Assembly: GCA_031552765.1 (NCBI GenBank) | Contig: JAVBME010000005.1 | Coordinates: 9,328-73,327 of the forward strand | Direction of reading: 5' to 3' | DNA: 64,000 bases | Source: Acidaminococcales bacterium | GTDB taxonomy: Bacteria > Bacillota > Negativicutes > Acidaminococcales > JAISLQ01 | Shown: in pieces, positions 48,785-62,514 of the stretch | How the letters are laid out: each line of letters starts with the position of its first letter | How positions within the stretch are numbered: the first letter of the stretch is position 1 | Program-made: the position numbers and the translations under genes | Notes under the pieces: model-generated | Databases searched by the model: none | What the model saw: only the letters and a program-made list of their open reading frames with translations | Told to the model about the DNA's origin: nothing

Positions 48785-48858
48785 ATAAATTTTATTTATG
48801 TTAAACATTATAATATAATGAAGTATGGATGTAATTTTACATGCCCAAAAGGGGAAAT

Positions 48859-49362
48859 ATGAAATTTATCGGCGACGGTTACGCAAGATACGTCATGCAT
48901 ACGGATTGGGGCCTTTGGGAAACGGTCTGGTCAGATGCCGGTCTGGTGGTATTGGAGTTCCCGGTAGCGGGTGAAATGGATTTGCAGTGGCCTAATATTC
49001 CGCTTTTTGCAGGCAATGATTTGAGCAGTCATTTGGAAAAAGCGCTGAAGCTTTATTTAAAAGGCGTACATACGGTTTTTGCCGTGCCGCTCGACTTGCG
49101 CAACTGCACTCCTTTTCAAAAGAAGGTTTACCAGGCCGCTTGCGGGCTGGGCTATGGCGAAACCGCCAGTTATGGGGATATCGCCAGGCGTATTGGCAAG
49201 CCTGGTGGCGCCAGGGCGGTAGGACAGGCGCTCAGCAAAAACCCCTTGCCGCTTGTTGTGCCCTGCCATAGGGTATTAGGCGCGGATGGCGCCCTGACAG
49301 GGTTCGGCAGTGGGCTGAATATGAAAAAGGCCCTGCTCTTGCTGGAGTCGTCTGCCGATTGA
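48859..49362 (+). CDS. ogt: Methylated-DNA--protein-cysteine methyltransferase
   Basis: ATG 48859 follows AAGGGGA. Has the active site LVVPCHRVLG and YGDIARRIGKPGGARAVG. Confidence 0.9.
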   Translation: MKFIGDGYARYVMHTDWGLWETVWSDAGLVVLEFPVAGEMDLQWPNIPLFAGNDLSSHLEKALKLYLKGVHTVFAVPLDLRNCTPFQKKVYQAACGLGYGETASYGDIARRIGKPGGARAVGQALSKNPLPLVVPCHRVLGADGALTGFGSGLNMKKALLLLESSAD

Positions 49363-51056: not shown

Positions 51057-52331
51057 ATGGAAAAGCAATTATATGATACATATCTGGCAATTTTAGAGGG
51101 AGATATGGTAACCGCTCTGGGCTGCACCGAACCGATAGCCGTGGCGTACGCCGCAGCCAAAGCGCGACAGGTGTTGGGAGTTATGCCGGAAAAATGCGTA
51201 GTGTCATGCAGCGGCAACATTGTCAAAAATGTAAAAGGCGTAGTTGTGCCTAATTCAGGCGGCCTTAAAGGCATAGAAGCGGCGGCTGTATTGGGGATAG
51301 TCGGCGGCGACGCCGAACGGTCGCTTACTGTTTTAGAAACGGTAACCGACGAAGACAGGCAGGCCGCGCAAAAACTTTTGCAGGACGACTTTTGCCGTTG
51401 CGTGCTCCTCGAGGGGGTGCCCGGTCTTTATATATCGGTCGCTTTGTCGGCCAAAGACGGCTCGGCGCAAGTGGATATACAGGACTACCATACGAATATA
51501 GTAAAAATAAAGAAAAACGGCGCAGATATATTTGCCGCGTCCGCCGCCCCGGTGCACAGTGATACCGCTACGCCGGACAGGTCGCTGTTGAACGTGAAGG
51601 ATATCCTTCAATTTGCCGAAGAAGTGCAGATGGAGGATATAGAAGAGGTAATAACCCAGCAGATAGATTATAACAGCACTATCGCCAGGGAAGGCCTGGC
51701 GCATCCTTACGGCGTACAGGTGGGGCGCAGCCTTTTAGCCGAAGGCGCCGGCGATGTAAAGACCAGGGCCAAGGCGGCGGCCGCCGCCGGCTCAGACGCC
51801 AGGATGAGCGGCTGCGCTTTGCCTGTAGTCATCAACTCCGGTAGCGGCAACCAGGGCATAACTGTCACCATGCCTGTGGTGGAATACGCCAAGGAGTACC
51901 GGGTCGGTAAGGAAAAACTATACCGGGCTCTGGTTGTGAGCAACCTTGTAGCCATACACCAGAAAAAATACATAGGCAGCTTGTCCGCCTATTGCGGCGT
52001 TGTCAGCGCGGCCTGCGGCAGCGGTACAGGTATTGCCTACTTATTGGGTTACTCATATGAAGAGATTTGCGACGTTATAACAAACACTATCGCGACCATC
52101 GGCGGTATGGTGTGTGACGGCGCCAAGCCTTCGTGCGCCGCCAAGATTGCTGCGGCGGTCGATACCGCTATCATGGCGCTCAATCTCAGCCGAAAAAAAC
52201 TCGTCTTCCAGCCGGGCGAAGGCCTGGTAAAGGATGATGTGGAAAAGACTATCGCCAGTATCGGTTATATGGGCAGGGAAGGCATGAAAACGACCGATGT
52301 GGAAATTTTGAAAATCATGCTGGAAAAGTAA
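51057..52331 (+). CDS. UPF0597 / serine dehydratase alpha-like protein (L-cysteine desulfidase-like)
   Basis: ALGCTEPIAVAYAAA...INSGSGNQG...GMVCDGAKPSCAAK. Confidence 0.75.
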   Translation: MEKQLYDTYLAILEGDMVTALGCTEPIAVAYAAAKARQVLGVMPEKCVVSCSGNIVKNVKGVVVPNSGGLKGIEAAAVLGIVGGDAERSLTVLETVTDEDRQAAQKLLQDDFCRCVLLEGVPGLYISVALSAKDGSAQVDIQDYHTNIVKIKKNGADIFAASAAPVHSDTATPDRSLLNVKDILQFAEEVQMEDIEEVITQQIDYNSTIAREGLAHPYGVQVGRSLLAEGAGDVKTRAKAAAAAGSDARMSGCALPVVINSGSGNQGITVTMPVVEYAKEYRVGKEKLYRALVVSNLVAIHQKKYIGSLSAYCGVVSAACGSGTGIAYLLGYSYEEICDVITNTIATIGGMVCDGAKPSCAAKIAAAVDTAIMALNLSRKKLVFQPGEGLVKDDVEKTIASIGYMGREGMKTTDVEILKIMLEK

Positions 52332-52340
52332 ATAGTTAAA

Positions 52341-52384
52341 AACTCCCGCGCTAAAATTATTATTGTCGGCGGGAGTTTTTTTAT
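52341..52384 (+). terminator. Rho-independent terminator
   Basis: AACTCCCGC (52341-52349) pairs with GCGGGAGTT (52369-52377), followed by a T-run. Confidence 0.7.
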
Positions 52385-52408
52385 AAAAATTATGTTTATT
52401 TGTTTATG

Positions 52409-52437
52409 TTGCAATATTTTGGTGTTGCACCGATAAT
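52409..52437 (+). promoter_or_regulatory. Candidate promoter of the 1442-aa gene
   Basis: TTGCAA (52409-52414), a 17-nt spacer, then GATAAT (52432-52437). Confidence 0.45.
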
Positions 52438-52490
52438 AATCATAGAGGTTTTTTGTTCGATAACTGCTGAAAAGCGAGGTATGGGAAAAG

Positions 52491-55400
52491 ATGATCCAGC
52501 ACCCCTTCCATATTTTTGATTGCCTGCGGGCGCTTAATAATATAATGTTTCCTTCGGTACGGGATTTTTCTGTTTACGATAAGGTTTTGCATATAAATGA
52601 AATAACGGTCGGCCGTTATGCGAAACTGGGCAGGAATACAAAAGAAGCGCTGTGGCTGGAAGTATTGCGCCCGGAATTTACGCATTTTCCGCAAATGCCC
52701 GAAGAGCTGGCGGCCTGGATAGGCGACTGGGGAGGACAACTGCCGGCGCAGCCGCCGCGCCCGCGCCGGTATTACCGTAACAAGGAAGAGCTTTGGGAAG
52801 AAAAGCAATCGGCGCTGCTGTCTCAAGAAAACAGCAGTCTGAAAGGCGAACGCTTTGACGCTGTCCCCGCCCGGGTAAAAGACTGGCGGCAGTGGCTGAG
52901 GGCGGAGTGGACGCCCTGGGCAAAAGAAAACCAGGAAAAATTCGAAGCGATAGAAGGTTATGAAAAGATATGGTCATTGGCGCAAATACTGAAAAACCAT
53001 AAGGACAGGTTTGAACTTTTGTGGTGCACGGCTATCCTGTGCTGGCGGCTGGATGGCCTGGAGATCAGGCGGCCGCTTTTGACCAGCAGGCTGGAGATAG
53101 AACATGACCCGCACAAAGGCCTGCTGCGTCTTTTACCGACTAAGACCGGGCCAAAACTGGAATATGACATGCTGTTCGGCTTGCCGGACGTTAACTTTCC
53201 GGAACTGTTTTTGCTGGAACGCCAACTGCTGGAAGAAGAGCTGGATTTAAGGGACAATGCGGCCGTGCGTGATTTTTCACAAAAGATTGCCGATGCGGTA
53301 GCGCCTGGCTGCCAGGTGCTTACCGGAGAAAGCTTGCAGCAAAAAGCGCCAACCGGCTTGCCGCGGATATATTGCGCAGATCCAGCCCTCGTGCTGAGAA
53401 AACTCGATGCCAGCAAATGGCGGGGCGAACTCGAAGGAGTAGTGGAAACTATCGATGCCGGCGGCTCGTTGTCCGATATTTTCGGCCATTATTACAGAAT
53501 GGACAGACGCGCGGAGGAGTTACCCGAACGCGGCTGGAAAGAAAGCAGCCAGACGCCTCTTTTTCCATGGGCGGCGGCTGATGCTCAGTGGGAAGCGATA
53601 AGGCGACTGCCCGACAATAACCTGGTAGTCGTGGAGGCGCCGGAAGGCAGCGGTAAAGAGCAACTAGTAGGCAACCTTCTTTCCCACCTTTTGGCTCATG
53701 GCAAAAAAGTATTGGTAACAGGGCCGTGTGGCGCCCGGCTGCAACAGGCCGGCAACCTGATAAATAAAGAATTTTCCGAGATAGCTCCGCTTTGTGTTTG
53801 CGCTGCCGGTACGGAAAAAGAAAATATAAACGAGCTTTTTACTTCTTTGCGCGCGCACAACCAGAAAATGAATTTTTTCACCAGAGAGCAAGTCGCGCGT
53901 GCGCTGGCAGAGCTACAGACACGGCTAGGCCAGTGCCGCAACGAACTTTTGGAAAACAAAAACCAGCTACAGGCCGCCCAAACACTCGAATATACCAGGA
54001 AGTTTTCTCTTGAAGGCAAAGAAAGATCGCCCTGGGAGGTGGCTGCCTGGCTGGTTGATAAAGCGGAAAAACTCGGTTATATACCCGATGCCATAGGGCA
54101 TGACCAGGATTGCCCGTTAAACGGCGGCGAATTGGGGAAATTTTTCGAGCTGCTGCGAAGCAGCTCGCCTGACGACGGTAAACGATTGAATATGTGGTGG
54201 CTTTTTCCTGACCAGATAATGGCGGGCGAGCGCCTGGAAGATATCTTGCAACAGCTAGAGGCGCTTTATGAAGACAGGAAAGTGCGCCAAGAGCTGCTGG
54301 CAGACTGTCTGTTTGAAGAGGCGGATGCGGTAACGGCCAGCGGGGTGCTTGCCGAATACCAGCAGGCGCTTACTTCACTGCCTGGCGTAGCGGGCGACTG
54401 GCTGGAAAATGTACTGAAAGACCTTGCTGGTTCTTCGCAAAGGCGCCGCATTTGGGAAGAACTTTACCAGTCTTCGATCGGACGCCTACAGAAGATACGC
54501 AGCTTGCAGACGATGATAAGCGACTATACAGTCACGGTCCCGGAACGGGGCGATTTCCGCCATCTGCGCGACGTGCTTTACAACTTGCGTATAGAATTTT
54601 TCAAAAATGGTAAACTGGGTTTTATTTATAAATTGACGGCCGGCAAAAAATCGCTCGGCGTATTCGAAGAATGTCTTATTAACGGCCAACAGGCGGCCAG
54701 CATACAGGATGTCGACTTGATACTGGCCCATATAGATTACCTGGATGAAGTCAGAAAACTGGCGCACAGGTGGAACAACACCGTTTTTGAGATAGACGGC
54801 CCGCAGCTTGACGACTCTTCGCCACTTCTTCTCGACAGTGTGGAAAGATATGTCGGACAGCTTAAAAAAGCGCTCCATTGGCAGCGTACTTATCTGGATA
54901 TACTAAAAAAATCCTGGCAGGTATTTTCCCATAATCAGGCGCCGCAGTGGTCTGACCGCTGCTGGCTTGGTTTTATGCTGCCCAAATTGCAGGCCTGGTC
55001 ACGGGAGCGGTATATGCTCCAACTGCTGGCGGAATTGGAGCGGCAAAAAGAGCTGCTTACGGCAACGCCGGAAGGGGAAGAGGACCACCCGGTGTGCGCG
55101 ACTTTGCTGTCTGCGCTTGAAGAAGGCGACATTGCGGCCTGGCAGGATGCGCGGGCTATGGCGGAAGAACTGACCCGCCAGCGCGAAGCCTGGCAGGATT
55201 TTCGCTCGCTTTACGTCAAAATGGCCGATATAGCGCCGCTTTGGGTGGAAAAACTGCTAAAGAGCGCCCAACAGCCGTTTTCCGCTTTGCCGGAAGACTG
55301 GCCGGAGGCCTGGCAGTGGAGCAGGGGGAAATCATGGCTGTCCAAACACCGCGAGGGCAACCGCCTTATGGAGATGCACGGCCGATACATGGAAAAACAG

Positions 55401-56819
55401 AAAGAAGAATCCGTCCTGGTGCGCGAAGTAGCGGCCAGCAGCGCCTGGTACTGGCAGCTTAAGCGGATAACCGCGGAGGAAAAAAAGGGACTGGATTTTC
55501 TTCTTGGCAAGGCCGACCAGAAATACGGCGCTGATAAAGAGGATGAGCTGCCGCGCGACTTTTTGCGCGAAGCGGAATTTTGGCGTATGAGCCTGCCGGC
55601 CTGGATCATGCCTATAGATGTACTTTTGCAGACACTGGGGCCGTTTGACCGCTTATTTGACGTGGTAATCGTGGAAGAAAGCGAAAAATGCGATATTTTC
55701 AACCTATGCTTGCTGCTGCGCGGCAGGAAGGCTGTGATAATAGGCGACAATATGCTGCCCGGCGGCATTAACATGCTGCAAGGACGGGCCGCCGCCAAAA
55801 TAGTCTTGGAAAAATCATTGCTGGGTTTGCCGGCTAAAGTGCGTTTTGACCTTAACGACAGTATTTACGATTTTGCTTTGCGTTTGCTGGACGGGCAAAG
55901 TATTTTGCTCAATGAGATATATAACTATCTGCCCGGTTTGAGCGGCTTTGTCAATGAACATTTTTACGGCGGCAAACTTACCCAGCTGATGCCGGGAGAA
56001 GGCAGCGCCCAACTGCTGCCTGTCCTTAATAAAGTAGTTTTGCCGGCGCACCTTGCCGGGACGAACAACCGCCAGGAAGCGTCAGGCGTTGTCAATAAAC
56101 TGGCCGAAGTTATAAAAAAACCGGAATACGCTGGCAAAAGCCTGTGCATATTGACTTTGGGCGGTAGCGACCAGGTGGAGCTTTTAAACGAATTATTGTT
56201 GCAGCGTGTAGCGGAAGAAGAAATCGCCGCGCGCGATATTACGGTATCGAGTGTATGCGATTATGCCGGCGGCCGGCGCGATGTAGTGTTTTTCTCGCTG
56301 GTATCAGCGCAACTGGCGGAAAAAGCGGATATGCGCGACCTGAATGCAGCTGTATCTACTGTGCGTGAGCAGATGTATGTTTTCCGGCCGTTTGCTGAAG
56401 AAAATATTTTCGTACGTAGCTTGAGCGCCCGCCTGCTAGCGTTAGGCGCCGGCGAACAAGAGGTAGATACGCCCGAAGCGCCTAGACTGGTTCAGGACGT
56501 ATGGCGGGCAATATCCGGGAAGGGGTACAGGGCTACGGCCTGGAGCGAGCCGCCCGGTATAGGACGCCGGCTGGATATAGTCATTGAAAGCAGCGGCGGC
56601 AAGGCCGCCGTTATCTGCGACGGTCTGCGCAATACGGCGGAAACGGAAAAACTGTTCAAAATCAAAGAACAACTGGCCCGTGCCGGCTGGCACACCATAC
56701 ATATACGGGGTTGCGATTTTTATATCGACAGGGAAAACACACTGGGCAAACTTTGGCAATTTTTGGAAAAAGTTGGTATAATGACTACCCAGGAAGAAAA
56801 TACACTTAAAAGTTTTTGA
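52491..56819 (+). CDS. 1442-aa DUF4011/Upf1-like SF1 helicase homolog with C-terminal DUF559/REase-like domain; catalytic motifs apparently degenerate
   Basis: Uninterrupted 4.3-kb ORF. P-loop-like APEGSGKE (aa 383-390) and motif II-like FDVVIVEESEK (aa 1056-1066). It also has IIGDNMLPGG, VCDYAGGRRDVVFFSLVSA and LNAAVSTVRE. The C-terminal part reads LDIVIESS..AAVICDG...GWHTIHIRGCDF. Confidence 0.8.
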   Translation: MIQHPFHIFDCLRALNNIMFPSVRDFSVYDKVLHINEITVGRYAKLGRNTKEALWLEVLRPEFTHFPQMPEELAAWIGDWGGQLPAQPPRPRRYYRNKEELWEEKQSALLSQENSSLKGERFDAVPARVKDWRQWLRAEWTPWAKENQEKFEAIEGYEKIWSLAQILKNHKDRFELLWCTAILCWRLDGLEIRRPLLTSRLEIEHDPHKGLLRLLPTKTGPKLEYDMLFGLPDVNFPELFLLERQLLEEELDLRDNAAVRDFSQKIADAVAPGCQVLTGESLQQKAPTGLPRIYCADPALVLRKLDASKWRGELEGVVETIDAGGSLSDIFGHYYRMDRRAEELPERGWKESSQTPLFPWAAADAQWEAIRRLPDNNLVVVEAPEGSGKEQLVGNLLSHLLAHGKKVLVTGPCGARLQQAGNLINKEFSEIAPLCVCAAGTEKENINELFTSLRAHNQKMNFFTREQVARALAELQTRLGQCRNELLENKNQLQAAQTLEYTRKFSLEGKERSPWEVAAWLVDKAEKLGYIPDAIGHDQDCPLNGGELGKFFELLRSSSPDDGKRLNMWWLFPDQIMAGERLEDILQQLEALYEDRKVRQELLADCLFEEADAVTASGVLAEYQQALTSLPGVAGDWLENVLKDLAGSSQRRRIWEELYQSSIGRLQKIRSLQTMISDYTVTVPERGDFRHLRDVLYNLRIEFFKNGKLGFIYKLTAGKKSLGVFEECLINGQQAASIQDVDLILAHIDYLDEVRKLAHRWNNTVFEIDGPQLDDSSPLLLDSVERYVGQLKKALHWQRTYLDILKKSWQVFSHNQAPQWSDRCWLGFMLPKLQAWSRERYMLQLLAELERQKELLTATPEGEEDHPVCATLLSALEEGDIAAWQDARAMAEELTRQREAWQDFRSLYVKMADIAPLWVEKLLKSAQQPFSALPEDWPEAWQWSRGKSWLSKHREGNRLMEMHGRYMEKQKEESVLVREVAASSAWYWQLKRITAEEKKGLDFLLGKADQKYGADKEDELPRDFLREAEFWRMSLPAWIMPIDVLLQTLGPFDRLFDVVIVEESEKCDIFNLCLLLRGRKAVIIGDNMLPGGINMLQGRAAAKIVLEKSLLGLPAKVRFDLNDSIYDFALRLLDGQSILLNEIYNYLPGLSGFVNEHFYGGKLTQLMPGEGSAQLLPVLNKVVLPAHLAGTNNRQEASGVVNKLAEVIKKPEYAGKSLCILTLGGSDQVELLNELLLQRVAEEEIAARDITVSSVCDYAGGRRDVVFFSLVSAQLAEKADMRDLNAAVSTVREQMYVFRPFAEENIFVRSLSARLLALGAGEQEVDTPEAPRLVQDVWRAISGKGYRATAWSEPPGIGRRLDIVIESSGGKAAVICDGLRNTAETEKLFKIKEQLARAGWHTIHIRGCDFYIDRENTLGKLWQFLEKVGIMTTQEENTLKSF

Positions 56820-56837
56820 CTTATAAGGGGTGAGATT

Positions 56838-57716
56838 ATGAACAAGGCGCGTTTTTTGATAATAACAGGCATGTCGGGCGCGGGCAAGAGCTTGGTGCTC
56901 AAGGCGCTTGAGGATTTGGATTTTTTTTGTATGGACAATCTTCCTCCCGCGCTGATACCTAAATTCGCCGAGCTTTACCAGCAGATCGAAGGCGGGTCAA
57001 AGAACGTAGCTTTGGTTGTGGACATTCGCGTAGGCGGCTTTTTTTCGGAGTTCGCAAAAACCCTGGGCGAACTTAGCGCCGGGAATATTCCGTATGAGCT
57101 GCTATTTCTCGATTGTGACGATGAAGTGCTCATCCGGCGCTACAAAGAGACCCGCCGCCGGCATCCTTTGAGCGTGGACGGCAGGATAAGCCATGGCATC
57201 AGGCTGGAGAGAGAGGCGCTAGCCTGCGCGCGCGACCTGGCAACAAATATCATAAATACCAGCCAGATGAAGGACGCGGATTTGCGTGAGGAGATAAAAG
57301 GCCTGTTCGGGGAGCAAAACGCCGGCACGCCTTTTAATATCACCGTGCTTTCTTTTGGCTTCAAGTATGGTTTGCCTACAGACGCCGATATGGTATTTGA
57401 TGTGCGCTTTTTGCCTAATCCTTTTTATGTAGAAGAACTCAAATATAAAAGTGGCAATACAAAAGAAGTGGCGGAATATGTGGGGAAATGGCCGATCGCC
57501 AGGAGATTTTTGCTTAAACTGGAAGATATGGTGGATTTTCTCATGCCGCAATTTATCAAGGAAGGCAAGGCCCAGACGGTCATCGCGATAGGCTGTACGG
57601 GCGGTATGCACAGGTCGGTATTCATCGCCAATAAATTGGCCGACATGCTGAGGACGCAGGGCTATAAAGTGCAGGTAGAGCACAGGGATATTGCCAAAAA
57701 TACCGCCAAGGAATAG
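56838..57716 (+). CDS. rapZ: RNase adapter protein RapZ (YvcJ)
   Basis: LIITGMSGAGKS...FLDCDDEVLIRRYKETRRRHPL...AIGCTGGMHRSV. Confidence 0.93.
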   Translation: MNKARFLIITGMSGAGKSLVLKALEDLDFFCMDNLPPALIPKFAELYQQIEGGSKNVALVVDIRVGGFFSEFAKTLGELSAGNIPYELLFLDCDDEVLIRRYKETRRRHPLSVDGRISHGIRLEREALACARDLATNIINTSQMKDADLREEIKGLFGEQNAGTPFNITVLSFGFKYGLPTDADMVFDVRFLPNPFYVEELKYKSGNTKEVAEYVGKWPIARRFLLKLEDMVDFLMPQFIKEGKAQTVIAIGCTGGMHRSVFIANKLADMLRTQGYKVQVEHRDIAKNTAKE

Positions 57717-57810
57717 CGGCGGTACTGTATGGTCAAGATAAGTTCTGGCATATTGGGGACGGCGGGTTTTGGCGCGGTTTCCTATGGCAGATAGAAAAAC
57801 AGGTGTTTTT

Positions 57811-59181
57811 ATGCATTGGATAAAATGGCTGTACCCGGGCATAAACATAAAGCGTTGGCTGTTATTGCTCATGTTGGGGCTGGCCTTGATAGCGGCCGGG
57901 ATAATGATGTTTTTCCGCAACAGTATCGGCGGATTTTTAGAAAGTTTTGTCCGCTGGATAGAACTGGCTATAGTAGAAGGAAATAACAGGCATGTATTCA
58001 ACTTTCTGGGCGCCGCCTGCTTGTTGGCCGGATTGGTATCAATAGTCGTTGCCGTAAGGAAAATCGGCAACTCTTTTTTGAGTTGTTTAATGCCGGACGG
58101 AGACCAGAAACTGGTGGATAGGATGTTCACCCGCCATCATTTAGACAATGGCCCCCTGGTGACGGTTATCGGCGGCGGGACAGGGCTTTCGATACTGCTG
58201 CGCGGTATGAAGCAGATAACCAGTAACTGCAGCGCGGTAGTTGCTACTACCGACGACGGCGGCTCCTCCGGGCGCCTGCGTGAGGAACTGGGCATAATAC
58301 CGCCGGGCGACCTGCGAAACTGCATAACGGCGCTGGCCGATACCGAGCCGTTGATGTCCAAGCTGATGCAGTACAGGTTCAAGGGCGACAGCTCGCTTTC
58401 CGGGCATAGTTTCGGCAACCTTTTTATTGCCGCTATGGCAGATATCGTGGGTGATATGGAGGGCGGGCTCAACGCGGCCAGCACAGTTTTAAAAGTGCGC
58501 GGCAGCGTTATTCCGGCGACATTGGAGCCGGTAACGCTGGTGGCGCGTATGGACGACGGGACTATCTACGAAGGTGAGACGAACATCGTCGCTGCCGGCA
58601 AAAAGATAGAGCGGATGAATTTGTTGCCGGCCCATGCCGCCGCGACCAAGAGCGCGGTCAAAGCCATTATGGAAGCGGATATGCTCCTATTGGGTCCGGG
58701 CAGCCTTTATACGAGCGTTATTACTAACCTACTGGTGCCGGAGATAAGAGAAGCCGTACTCAGCAGCCAGGCAGTGAAAGTATATATCTGCAACGTCATG
58801 ACCCAGCCGGGGGAAACGGACGGCTATTCCAGTTATGACCATGTGAACGCCATTTTCGAACATGTGGGCGAGCCTTTCCTCGATTATGTCGTGGTCAACA
58901 AACAGAGCATCAGCCAGGATCTTTTGGATAAATACGCCGCCCAGGGCGCGTATCCGGTAAAACAGGAAAATGGCCGCCTGATGTGCCTCGGGCTCAGTGT
59001 GGTCGAGGCTAACCTTATCAGCGAAGAAAACCTTGTGCGCCACCAGCCTGTCCAACTGGCCAAGACTCTGATGGCGCTCGTTTACCGGCTGCGCCTTTCC
59101 GGCAACAGGTTCAAGATCATGGATTATTACTTTGTACGTGACAGCATGCGTCGCATAAGAAAGATTATTGAAGGAGACTAA
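57811..59181 (+). CDS. yvcK: YvcK-family gluconeogenesis/morphology factor (UPF0052) with N-terminal membrane extension
   Basis: The likely start is ATG 57811 (MHWIKWLYPG). There are two hydrophobic helices. The core follows: VTVIGGGTGLS.LLRG...TTDDGGSSGRLR...LGPGSLYTS. Confidence 0.88.
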   Translation: MHWIKWLYPGINIKRWLLLLMLGLALIAAGIMMFFRNSIGGFLESFVRWIELAIVEGNNRHVFNFLGAACLLAGLVSIVVAVRKIGNSFLSCLMPDGDQKLVDRMFTRHHLDNGPLVTVIGGGTGLSILLRGMKQITSNCSAVVATTDDGGSSGRLREELGIIPPGDLRNCITALADTEPLMSKLMQYRFKGDSSLSGHSFGNLFIAAMADIVGDMEGGLNAASTVLKVRGSVIPATLEPVTLVARMDDGTIYEGETNIVAAGKKIERMNLLPAHAAATKSAVKAIMEADMLLLGPGSLYTSVITNLLVPEIREAVLSSQAVKVYICNVMTQPGETDGYSSYDHVNAIFEHVGEPFLDYVVVNKQSISQDLLDKYAAQGAYPVKQENGRLMCLGLSVVEANLISEENLVRHQPVQLAKTLMALVYRLRLSGNRFKIMDYYFVRDSMRRIRKIIEGD

Positions 59182-59182
59182 A

Positions 59183-60124
59183 ATGTCTTTTTCCAGTGAG
59201 GTAAAAAACGAACTGGCGCGTTTGGCCAGCCTCAACTCCTGCTGCCTGGTAGCGGAACTGTCCGCCCTTTTCCGTATGGGGGGGAGCATAGTCATGCGCG
59301 GCTTGAATATAGGCGTAGACTTTGCCACCGAGAATGCCGCTTTGGCCAGACGGGTACTGCAAATGAGCAAAAAACGTTTCAAACTGCCTCTGGAGGTGGT
59401 GGTGACCCGCTCGCGCCGGCTGCGGAAAAACAACCGTTACCTGATACGGGTGACGCCGGGCCAGGAAACAAGGACTGTCATGGCGGCTTTGGGCGTATTG
59501 CCGGGTGATGAGGGCGCAGAGCTGGTAAAAAATATCTTGCAGGCCTCCTGTTGCCGCAAAGCCTTTTTGCGTGGAGCGTTTTTGGCGGGCGGCTCGGTCA
59601 GCCGGCCGCTGGGTGATTACCACCTGGAACTTGTCTCCCAGTCAAACGAACTGGCGGCGCTTATCGTAAAGATGATGAAAAGCTTTTCTCTGCCGGCCAA
59701 AATGACCGACCGCAAAGGCGACTATATAGTTTACCTGAAAGAAGGCGGGGCAATAATCTCCTTTTTGTCTCTGGTAGGGGCTCATACCGCGCTTCTGGAG
59801 TTTGAAAATGTACGCATAGTAAAAGAGATGCGCAACCAGGTAAACCGTGTGGTAAACTGCGAGACAGCCAACCTCGGTAAAGTGGTGAAGGCCGCTTTGA
59901 AGCAGGTGGCGGCGATAAAGTATATAGAGGAAAAGGCAGGGCTTGGTATACTTGCGCCTTCTCTGCGCGAGGCGGCCGAGCTCAGGCTGGAGCACCAGGA
60001 AGCGCCGCTGAGCGAGCTGGCGGAGCTTGCCGCTGGGCAGATCGGCAAGGCGGGAATGAACCACCGTTTGAAGAAAATAGAGCAGTTTGCTCAAAAAATG
60101 GGAATGAAAGATGTTAAAGAATAA
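59183..60124 (+). CDS. whiA: DNA-binding protein WhiA
   Basis: ATG 59183 follows AAGGAG. Has MSFSSEVKNEL, LAGLIDADG-like repeats and a C-terminal HTH. Confidence 0.93.
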   Translation: MSFSSEVKNELARLASLNSCCLVAELSALFRMGGSIVMRGLNIGVDFATENAALARRVLQMSKKRFKLPLEVVVTRSRRLRKNNRYLIRVTPGQETRTVMAALGVLPGDEGAELVKNILQASCCRKAFLRGAFLAGGSVSRPLGDYHLELVSQSNELAALIVKMMKSFSLPAKMTDRKGDYIVYLKEGGAIISFLSLVGAHTALLEFENVRIVKEMRNQVNRVVNCETANLGKVVKAALKQVAAIKYIEEKAGLGILAPSLREAAELRLEHQEAPLSELAELAAGQIGKAGMNHRLKKIEQFAQKMGMKDVKE

Positions 60125-60899: not shown

Positions 60900-60953
60900 C
60901 TTTGCCGGGGGATTGATTATAAAATAAGACAAATGCATGAATGGAGGAACAAC

Positions 60954-61097
60954 ATGAAAAAGCATGTGAAAACAGTAAATAAAGGCGATCTGGGCAAAAC
61001 GGTACGTACCGGCGGTTGCGGCGAATGCCCGTCTTCTTGCCAGTCTGCCTGCAAGACATCTTGCACGGTAGGCAATCAGGTCTGCGAAAGAAAATAA
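60954..61097 (+). CDS. scfA: SCIFF six-cysteine ranthipeptide precursor (47 aa; below ORF-track cut-off)
   Basis: ATG 60954 lies 6 nt after GGAGG (60943-60947). Peptide: MKKHVKTVNKGDLGKTVRTGGCGECPSSCQSACKTSCTVGNQVCERK. The core GGCGEC..SCQSACKTSCTVGNQVCE matches the SCIFF core as I remember it. Confidence 0.88.
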   Translation: MKKHVKTVNKGDLGKTVRTGGCGECPSSCQSACKTSCTVGNQVCERK

Positions 61098-61118
61098 AGC
61101 ATTGCCAAAAAAGTATAA

Positions 61119-61151
61119 AGCTCCTTGCTCTTGGCAAGGAGCTGATTTTTT
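61119..61151 (+). terminator. Intercistronic hairpin/attenuator between precursor and maturase
   Basis: 10-bp stem AGCTCCTTGC-TCTTG-GCAAGGAGCT (61119-61143) followed by GA-T6. Confidence 0.65.
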
Positions 61152-61170
61152 CAAAAACAGGAGAGATATT

Positions 61171-62514
61171 TTGTTGATACATAAATTCACCCTGGGCGAG
61201 ACCAGGATAGTGCTTGATATAAATAGCGGGGCGATACACTTGGTGGACGGGCTGCTATATGACCTGCTGGATGTTTTTGACGGCGCCAACAAAGATGATG
61301 TAAGACAATTTTTTGCCGGCAGGTATGCAGACGGTGAAATAGAAGAGGGACTGAATGAACTGGCCGCGCTGGTCGAAGAAGGTTTGCTGTTCACGCCGCC
61401 GGCCCCGGCCGGGGAGTTTTTTTCCGAACAGCCGATAGTAAAATCCCTCTGCCTGCATATCGCGCATGACTGCAATCTGCGCTGCCGCTACTGTTTTGCC
61501 AGTACGGGCGGTTTTGGCGCCGCGCGTTCTTTGATGAGTAAAGAAACCGGCGAGGCGGCGGTGGAATTTGCCATTGCCGGCAGCCAGGGTCGGACAAACC
61601 TCGACATAGATTTTTTCGGCGGTGAGCCGCTCTTGAACAAGGAAGTAGTGATACACCTGGTAAACTATGCCCGCCGCCGCGAACAAGAGGCCGGTAAGAA
61701 CATCAAGCTGACGCTGACTACCAATGGCGTTTTGCTTGATGAGGAGATGACCGATTTTCTTTATGCCAATAGGGTGCTACTGGTGTTAAGCCTGGACGGG
61801 CGGCCCGGCGTGCATGACAATATGCGTCCTTTTGCCGGCGGCCGAGGCAGTTACCAGGCGGCGGCCGCCAATTTTAAAAAAGCGATAGATTTGCGCCAGG
61901 GGAAAGATTACTACCTGCGCGGTACCTATACCAGCGAAAACCTTGATTTTGCCGAGGATGTCCTGCACATGGCCAGTATCGGCAAAGAATTGTCCATGGA
62001 ACCGGTGGTAGAAAAAGACGCGCCATACCGCATAAAAGAAGAAGACCTGCCGCACGTTTTTGCCGAGTACGAAAAACTGGCCCATATCTATATAGAAAAG
62101 CAAAAGAAAGGTGAAGGATTTAACTTCTTTCATTTCAATATAGCTCTCGACGGCGGCCCCTGCCTGCTCAAGCGCTTGGCCGGCTGCGGCGCCGGGCATG
62201 AATATTTTGCCATAACGCCGGAAGGCGACATATATCCTTGCCATCAATTTGTCGGGCGTGAGCAATATAAAATGGGTAGCCTGGCCGAAGGCATCACCAG
62301 GCCGGATAAGACGCAGGAATTCCGTCGCGCCCATATACTTAATAAACCCGACTGCATGGCTTGCTGGGCGAAATTTTATTGCAGCGGCGGCTGCCACGCC
62401 AATGCCGATTTAATGAACGGCGATATATTAAAACCATATGAATTAGGCTGTGAAATACAGAAAAAACGCCTGGAATGCGCAATAGCGGCACAGGCTATTC
62501 TGGCATCGGAATAA
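61171..62514 (+). CDS. scfB: SCIFF radical SAM/SPASM maturase
   Basis: ORF 61102..62514; the likely start is TTG 61171, after CAGGAGAG. Has CNLRCRYC (CX3CX2C). C-terminal SPASM cysteines are CGAG...YPCHQF...CMACWAKFYCSGGC. Confidence 0.87.
   Translation: MLIHKFTLGETRIVLDINSGAIHLVDGLLYDLLDVFDGANKDDVRQFFAGRYADGEIEEGLNELAALVEEGLLFTPPAPAGEFFSEQPIVKSLCLHIAHDCNLRCRYCFASTGGFGAARSLMSKETGEAAVEFAIAGSQGRTNLDIDFFGGEPLLNKEVVIHLVNYARRREQEAGKNIKLTLTTNGVLLDEEMTDFLYANRVLLVLSLDGRPGVHDNMRPFAGGRGSYQAAAANFKKAIDLRQGKDYYLRGTYTSENLDFAEDVLHMASIGKELSMEPVVEKDAPYRIKEEDLPHVFAEYEKLAHIYIEKQKKGEGFNFFHFNIALDGGPCLLKRLAGCGAGHEYFAITPEGDIYPCHQFVGREQYKMGSLAEGITRPDKTQEFRRAHILNKPDCMACWAKFYCSGGCHANADLMNGDILKPYELGCEIQKKRLECAIAAQAILASE

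Follow-up and report, generated by a model that had tools for sequence, protein, structure and literature searches.

A catalytically degenerate helicase-nuclease homolog beside rapZ-yvcK-whiA in uncultured Acidaminococcales

Bacterial defence genes are usually regarded as mobile, patchy in distribution and quickly lost. A known system close to the gene studied here is Hhe (PADLOC PDLC02194, NCBIfam NF042953), a single-gene anti-phage system that combines a DUF4011 helicase with a Vsr-like endonuclease. MTES_1575, the domain type of that nuclease, was reported as a novel Vsr-type nuclease fused to superfamily 1 (SF1) helicases (Anantharaman et al. 2013, PMC3710099), and in Pseudomonas aeruginosa the defence hotspot cDHS1 is flanked by a large DUF4011 gene that belongs to the core genome (PMC10250203). 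Here we analyze a large open reading frame (ORF) from an Acidaminococcales bacterium (assembly GCA_031552765.1), located at 52491..56819 of a 64,000-nucleotide stretch of contig JAVBME010000005.1 (positions 9,328 to 73,327). This whole stretch is referred to as the window; positions are counted from its first letter, and every window feature located below lies on the forward (+) strand. The ORF runs uninterrupted for 1442 codons, as a preliminary description made from the letters alone had stated, and encodes a catalytically degenerate helicase-nuclease homolog immediately upstream of rapZ-yvcK-whiA. We consider it likely that this protein descends from a horizontally mobile helicase-nuclease family of the defence type, has been domesticated with the loss of its catalytic function, and now serves as a non-enzymatic scaffold or binder, possibly together with RapZ, GlmR and WhiA.

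Like Hhe, the window protein joins an Upf1-like SF1 helicase to a nuclease of the MTES_1575 type at its C-terminus, and it matches the DUF4011 core remotely. However, it scores 18.5 bits with the Hhe model (cut-off 2000), has no Pfam DUF4011 domain, differs in the arrangement of its N-terminal domain and insert, lacks the catalytic residues and is found in a context that is not defence-like. Nearer to it is a canonical sister family (P0009-P0018 and P0066-P0209), annotated as 'AAA domain-containing' or 'DUF3320 domain-containing'. These proteins are ~1430-1750 amino acids (aa) long, have the same N-terminal domain, a ~590-aa insert in the first RecA domain (RecA1), AAA_11/AAA_12 and MTES_1575, and can be aligned end to end with the window protein at 22-30% identity, but they keep all helicase motifs and, in most members, the nuclease motifs, and they occur in variable contexts, including plasmids. 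The best-scoring named models for the sisters are ProA (NCBIfam NF058533; 200-240 bits) and the PADLOC candidate PDC-S37 (164-225 bits), with matches spanning helicase, insert and nuclease, compared to ~100 bits for Hhe. The window protein reaches 39 bits with ProA and 19.5 bits with PDC-S37; the sisters, too, stay far below the ProA equivalog cut-off of 1500. By the model cut-offs the window protein therefore falls outside Hhe, ProA and PDC-S37, and it does not carry the catalytic motifs of an SF1 helicase or of a Vsr-type nuclease. Literature searches returned no description of ProA or PDC-S37, and no paper on this clade or on a helicase-like gene attached to rapZ-yvcK-whiA. The eukaryotic and bacterial SF1B helicases UPF1, Sen1/SETX, IGHMBP2, DNA2, Aquarius and ZNFX1 have a homologous RecA1/RecA2 core but are active motors with intact motifs and unrelated accessory domains, whereas the ATPase site of the window protein is degenerate. 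The P. aeruginosa cDHS1 gene likewise encodes a large helicase of the same superfamily and is a conserved core gene that is not mobile, but it belongs to the true DUF4011 subfamily and has no link to rapZ.

Homology was established at several levels. A first search covering 5.8 billion proteins yielded 7 full-length relatives of the same length (40-61% identity) and a second group with 22-27% identity and the full set of Pfam helicase domains; both groups could be aligned end to end, insert included. An exhaustive phmmer search of 1.84 billion representatives, using aa 1-1030 as query, gave 1304 proteins at E <= 1e-10 and 197 at E <= 1e-30, and added the close relatives P0063-P0065. The architecture first proposed (DUF4011, AAA_11/AAA_12 and a REase-type nuclease) was supported in part: full-length alignment with canonical relatives makes the homology firm, and AAA_12 matches at aa 1134-1297 (33.5 bits, gathering score 27). 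MTES_1575 (PF18741) falls just under its cut-off (37.4 bits, E 2.6e-9, cut-off 38.2) in a region that aligns unambiguously with canonical members. AAA_11 is weak near the P-loop (17 bits, under cut-off) and Pfam DUF4011 (PF13195) does not match the protein at all. Using hhalign, true DUF4011 helicases aligned with a probability of 100% over aa 932-1428, while the N-terminal segment LLWCTAILCW..RRPLL could be paired with the DUF4011 core LYLALGFLKW..APLVL at E 1.6e-4 and 50% probability, suggesting that the N-terminal domain is related to DUF4011 only remotely. Among solved structures in the PDB, the family profile matched Upf1, Sen1, IGHMBP2, DNA2 and Aquarius only (UPF1, E 2e-22). Matches in NCBIfam and PADLOC were weak and partial (ProA, Hhe, PLuB, PDC-S37 and MkoA), and PHROGs gave a single weak match to a family without assigned function. 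Profile and alignment evidence together identify the window protein as an Upf1-like SF1 helicase plus Vsr-like nuclease homolog.

The protein begins with the DUF4011-like N-terminal domain (aa 1-360, 52491..53570), the most conserved part within the clade. This is followed by the first half of RecA1, with degenerate Q motif and Walker A (aa 361-440, 53571..53810; delimited by alignment and the weak AAA_11 match), and by an all-helical insert that is shared with the canonical family (aa 441-1030, 53811..55580) and measures ~590 aa, not the ~665 aa proposed at the outset. The second half of RecA1 contains degenerate motifs II and III (aa 1031-1130, 55581..55880; alignment), RecA2/AAA_12 contains degenerate motifs IV, V and VI (aa 1134-1297, 55890..56381; Pfam and alignment), and the MTES_1575/Vsr-like nuclease domain lacks the catalytic Glu and the WHG His (aa 1335-1425, 56493..56765). 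In an AlphaFold2 model of aa 1-1200 (mean predicted local distance difference test (pLDDT) 80.4, predicted TM-score (pTM) 0.56), the insert is composed almost wholly of long helices of 30-60 residues (pLDDT ~85); the model of the N-terminal domain had a pLDDT of 82.6 and a pTM of 0.74. Foldseek comparison of the aa 1-1200 model to the PDB returned nothing at E below 1e-3, with coiled-coil proteins (Rad50, SMC and MukB) at TM-scores below 0.1 and Upf1-like cores at probabilities of 0.9-0.99, and the N-terminal domain model had no match there (best E 0.065, probability 0.03).

Loss of catalytic motifs within one clade

To read the motif columns, we aligned 126 full-length representatives to the family hidden Markov model, comprising 115 canonical members and the 11 members of a degenerate clade (P0001-P0008 and P0063-P0065; 37-63% identity). 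All 115 non-clade members have PGTGK[ST], DE[AS]SQ, the motif III Gln, FR[CS], QGDERD and NVAxSRA, and most have ECDGxxWHG. Degenerate motifs were found in the 11 clade members only. The altered strings picked out in the preliminary description (APEGSGKE, EESEK, GDNMLPGG, AGGRRD and VICDG) were all recovered at the residues given for them, and the motifs of the 115 canonical relatives align exactly opposite, without offset. Motif misassignment was rejected because the alignment is unambiguous.

The Walker A motif of the window protein reads APEGSGKE (aa 383-390, nucleotides (nt) 53637-53660). Across the clade its pattern is xPxxSxK[EDT]: the P-loop glycines are lost, K389 is invariant, and the residue after this Lys, canonically Ser or Thr, is Glu or Asp in 9/11 members. 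Motif II reads FDVVIVEESEK (aa 1056-1066, nt 55656-55688); its acidic positions vary within the clade, the first being D in 4 members, A in 3 and E, I, S or T in one each, and the second D in 7, E in 2 and S or A in one each, with Lys in place of the Gln. Motifs III-VI are represented in the window by GDNML(PGG), YNY, AGGRRD and NAAVSTV, and their key Gln, Arg and Glu residues are variable among clade members. In the nuclease, ECDGxxWHG is replaced by VICDGLR. The Asp of LDIVI and the DG are retained, the ECDG Glu has become I, F or L throughout the clade, and WHG is lost to a deletion of 2 residues. One clade member, P0065, retains K-T and DE..Q.

Of 93 columns conserved in at least 93% of the 115 canonical members, the clade keeps 49, replaces 7 with another conserved residue and lets 37 drift. 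The Walker A Lys is among the kept columns, most of which are structural W, P, G, L and F residues. Drift affects, among others, the Asn and Gln of the Q motif, the glycines and Thr of the P-loop, the acidic Asp and Glu of Walker B, the Gln of motif III, the His-Phe-Arg of motif IV, the Gln and Glu of motif V, and the Ser and both Arg residues of motif VI. Drift of this kind, with no new conserved set taking over, is the pattern expected when constraint on catalysis is relaxed. A neighbour-joining tree recovers the clade as monophyletic, on a long stem of 0.70 substitutions per site, with P0066, P0068, P0076, P0069 and P0009 as its nearest canonical relatives. The initial alternative between a pseudo-enzyme and a divergent lineage can thus be narrowed to a conserved pseudo-enzyme lineage, as degeneracy is present in 11/11 members of a monophyletic clade and in no other representative.

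The nuclease E-x-D-G/WHG residues are also lost in P0009, P0075, P0081, P0085, P0107, P0108, P0121 and P0150, all of which have a canonical helicase. Nuclease loss has therefore occurred repeatedly and independently in the family, and helicase loss is restricted to this clade among the 126 representatives.

The degenerate gene is nonetheless maintained. Its ORF is intact in 11/11 clade members (1355-1455 codons), at identities down to 37%. Between the window and its closest relative, locus L001, the proportion of nonsynonymous differences (pN) was 0.24 and that of synonymous differences (pS) was 0.75 and saturated. All regions are constrained in this comparison, the dead RecA2 and nuclease included (pN 0.17-0.36). 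As the synonymous rate (dS) was saturated in every available pair, we report pN and pS, which do not amount to a reliable dN/dS ratio. The ORF diverges about as much as the neighbouring HAD hydrolase gene (61/46/42% versus 61/49/45% identity) and faster than rapZ, yvcK, whiA and ftsH. These comparisons indicate that the gene is under purifying selection, and the view of it as a pseudogene was rejected on the grounds that the ORF is both intact and constrained.

Where constraint falls has also changed. The best-conserved stretches in the clade are aa 1-160, 441-520 and 1001-1120, compared to peaks at the helicase and nuclease motifs in canonical members. We identified 51 residues that are invariant in the clade yet rare in canonical members, and their density per 100 aa is highest in the N-terminal domain (5.3), followed by the second half of RecA1 (4.0) and the insert (3.9), with none at all in the nuclease. 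Constraint has shifted within the clade and was gained by the N-terminal domain and the insert.

Position beside rapZ

In 9/9 inspected clade loci, the gene lies on the same strand as and immediately upstream of rapZ-yvcK-whiA, so that the linkage to rapZ holds across gene neighbourhoods. The gap to rapZ ranges from called overlaps of 25 nt (L097) or 14 nt (L013) up to 56 nt. The upstream neighbour is an MBL-fold gene at 6 loci, SDH_alpha at 2 (the window and L001) and a HAD gene at 1 (L096). Because this neighbour differs between loci, the upstream junction has been remodelled at least 2 times, and the rapZ junction was never broken. We also fetched 80 metagenomic loci with a rapZ 50-59% identical, and 0/80 had a homolog of the large ORF within 10 kb; in the gene-less loci that were inspected, rapZ is preceded by a HAD gene, a second HAD gene, a biotin operon or a PHP-domain gene. 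Given its absence from these related loci, the large ORF is a lineage-specific insertion at the operon boundary. Only 2 GTDB species representatives carry the gene, both of them Acidaminococcales metagenome-assembled genomes (MAGs).

Within this lineage the gene has been inherited vertically at its fixed site. The G+C content of the ORF (52.5%) is that of its flanks (52.4% and 52.3%), in line with the lack of compositional contrast remarked on beforehand, and a recent horizontal acquisition was rejected because composition equals that of the flanks and synteny is conserved. The features of a mobile defence gene were not observed here, the site between housekeeping genes being fixed in 9/9 loci. 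Canonical relatives, in comparison, do show them and are found in unrelated contexts, including 99 plasmid records from many genera. Downstream of the canonical relative P0009 (locus L007, 12683-20536) we observed genes for a Fic-domain protein, a TIR-like protein and an nSTAND1 NTPase, a neighbourhood that looks like a defence island.

The sequence around the ORF matches what is expected of a rapZ operon member: same strand, a short gap without terminator and adjacency in 9/9 loci. In the window the ORF stop codon (56817-56819) is 18 nt from the rapZ ATG (56838), with a GGGGTGAG ribosome-binding site inside the gap, and no terminator-like site was found in this gap or at the junction in orthologs. 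Co-transcription with rapZ is plausible from this arrangement. The placement of the gene at the head of the cluster needs a qualification. In orthologs it is embedded in a co-directional array, uvrA-uvrC-ftsH-HAD-MBL-X-rapZ-yvcK-whiA (X being the large ORF), and does not head it; most lack a promoter-like site of their own and start 20-90 nt behind the upstream gene, which places the gene inside a longer array. In Enterococcus, yvcJ-glmR-yvcL form a three-gene operon autoregulated by YvcL (PMC10986989). WhiA influences cell division and chromosome segregation (PMC10714963).

The window and L001 depart from the other loci in their local signals. As had been noted, the upstream gene, SDH_alpha, is followed by a terminator-like hairpin and U run (52338..52380, -18.3 kcal/mol; z = -4.3, with 0 shuffles folding as well), which a consensus terminator scan overlooked because the loop is long. 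It is followed by a promoter-like TTGCAA-17-GATAAT (52409..52437; 9/12 positions), also foreseen, with the ATG 82 nt downstream; these hexamers recur at equal distance in L001, the closest ortholog locus. The other orthologs are without them and have no promoter-like site within 200 nt upstream. A second promoter-like sequence, TTGGCA-18-(TG)TATAAT (56753..56782; 11/12), of near-consensus extended -10 type, falls in the final 70 nt of the ORF, 56-85 nt before rapZ. Among the orthologs, L001 alone keeps it, together with the peptide LWQF(L/I)EKVGIMT that it encodes, so that constraint on DNA and on protein is inseparable at this site. This sequence may be rapZ's own promoter in the window and L001. 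An Rfam scan of 52000-57200 found no RNA family.

Possible roles of the protein

The following history would account for these observations. In the ancestor of a small, uncultured lineage of Acidaminococcales, one copy of the family would have landed directly before rapZ and lost its residues for ATP hydrolysis, translocation and nuclease activity; from then on it would have passed down vertically as a core gene within the operon. The protein would work through the surfaces of its N-terminal domain and helical insert, and it might act jointly with the RapZ/YvcK(GlmR)/WhiA module of cell envelope and cell division. We infer that the protein acts non-catalytically through these two regions, as a scaffold or binding protein; a partnership with RapZ/YvcJ, GlmR/YvcK and WhiA is speculative. 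Several observations weigh against this interpretation. K389 is conserved, as is a remnant SxK[ED] pattern, and the protein may still bind nucleotide without hydrolysis. The whole 20-kb uvrA-whiA region is syntenic, and adjacency to rapZ may partly reflect this general synteny; in the window, moreover, the 11/12 promoter-like site could uncouple rapZ transcription from that of the ORF. The gene is known only from uncultured MAGs and metagenome contigs. Fold searches in the PDB were uninformative for the N-terminal domain and the insert. Taken as a whole, the protein is acidic, with a RecA2 more acidic than in canonical members, which lends no support to nucleic-acid binding, and a regional comparison of charge and isoelectric point gave a clear signal neither for nor against such binding.

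A more specific proposal is that the rapZ-glmR-whiA operon took in an immune-type helicase-nuclease, which now serves as the non-enzymatic fourth component of the module, for example tethering RapZ, GlmR and WhiA to nucleic acid or to one another via its N-terminal domain and helical arm; we regard this as possible but doubtful. It is unlikely that the protein still belongs to phage defence, fixed in the core genome and working without catalysis as a sensor, a decoy or the partner of an effector encoded elsewhere. Such a role would fit the resemblance of its nearest relatives to single-gene defence systems (as seen in ProA, PDC-S37 and Hhe scores) and the Fic, TIR and STAND genes beside one of them, and the core DUF4011 gene at the P. 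aeruginosa hotspot (PMC10250203) shows that core residence is compatible with a defence link. However, no effector or other defence gene was found nearby in 9/9 loci, the position within a housekeeping gene array is fixed, the distribution within the lineage is not patchy as is typical of defence genes, and the protein's own effector (the nuclease) and sensor motor (the helicase) are both dead.

The loss of catalysis could itself be questioned if the protein were an ATPase, helicase or nuclease with non-canonical catalytic residues, which we consider highly improbable. The invariant Walker A Lys K389, the retained Phe-Asp of motif II, GD of motif III, RD of motif V and N of motif VI, and the K-T and DE..Q of P0065 would be expected of such an enzyme, but the P-loop glycines are gone, the post-Lys Ser/Thr is Glu/Asp in 9/11 members, the Walker B pair, the motif III Gln, IV Arg, V Gln/Glu and VI Arg vary without a new conserved set, and the nuclease has lost both Glu and His along with two residues. 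Nor, almost certainly, is the gene a functionless relic in the course of becoming a pseudogene. Lost catalytic motifs and evolution faster than that of rapZ, yvcK, whiA and ftsH are what decay would produce, but a long ORF has stayed intact in 11 lineages at identities down to 37%, every region has a pN well under its pS, many residues are clade-invariant, and tight spacing or overlap with the rapZ start has been preserved.

On the domesticated-scaffold reading, the locus is the opposite of the usual outcome for defence genes, namely a member of a plasmid-borne family that has no catalytic motifs and has long been kept at one fixed housekeeping site. It offers a natural experiment on which parts of giant helicase-nuclease proteins function apart from catalysis: the DUF4011-like N-terminal domain and the helical insert are structurally uncharacterised and are exactly where constraint was gained. 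The protein is also a candidate for a new partner of RapZ/YvcJ-GlmR-WhiA, a module that is poorly understood, and if it proved to be a fourth component, it would document for bacteria the exaptation of a defence protein into core cell physiology. The reach of these results is limited, the lineage being small and uncultured and the function being one that we infer.

Neighbouring genes

Pfam confirmed the downstream neighbours named beforehand: a rapZ/yvcJ homolog (56838..57716; RapZ-like_N and PapZ_C), a yvcK/glmR homolog of the CofD family (57769..59181; CofD, 372 bits) and a whiA/yvcL homolog (59168..60124; WhiA_N, LAGLIDADG_WhiA and HTH_WhiA). The last two of these ORFs, yvcK and whiA, share 14 nt (59168-59181). 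As listed, the yvcK ORF has a TTG start and 470 aa, 13-23 aa more than called orthologs (447-457 aa), and the true start is probably further downstream.

Upstream of the large ORF, the window contains ftsH, ogt, a HAD hydrolase gene, an MBL-fold protein gene and SDH_alpha. The SDH_alpha gene (serine dehydratase alpha chain-like; 51057..52331) lies between the MBL gene and the large ORF, an insertion present only in the window and L001. It carries the terminator described above and is followed by the new promoter-like site, showing how the operon was split; as L001 shares the insertion, a new promoter was needed there. The ogt gene (6-O-methylguanine DNA methyltransferase; 48841-49362), between ftsH and the HAD gene, is missing from this junction in every examined ortholog locus that spans it, where ftsH is followed directly by HAD, and looks like a genome-specific insertion. 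Finally, the window encodes a SCIFF-type Cys-rich peptide of 54 aa (…GGCGECPSSCQSACKTSCTVGNQVCERK; 60933-61097) and the radical SAM/SPASM maturase of this peptide (61102-62514), and the pair is kept 3' of whiA in ortholog loci (Pfam SCIFF in L002, L011, L012, L013, L096 and L097).

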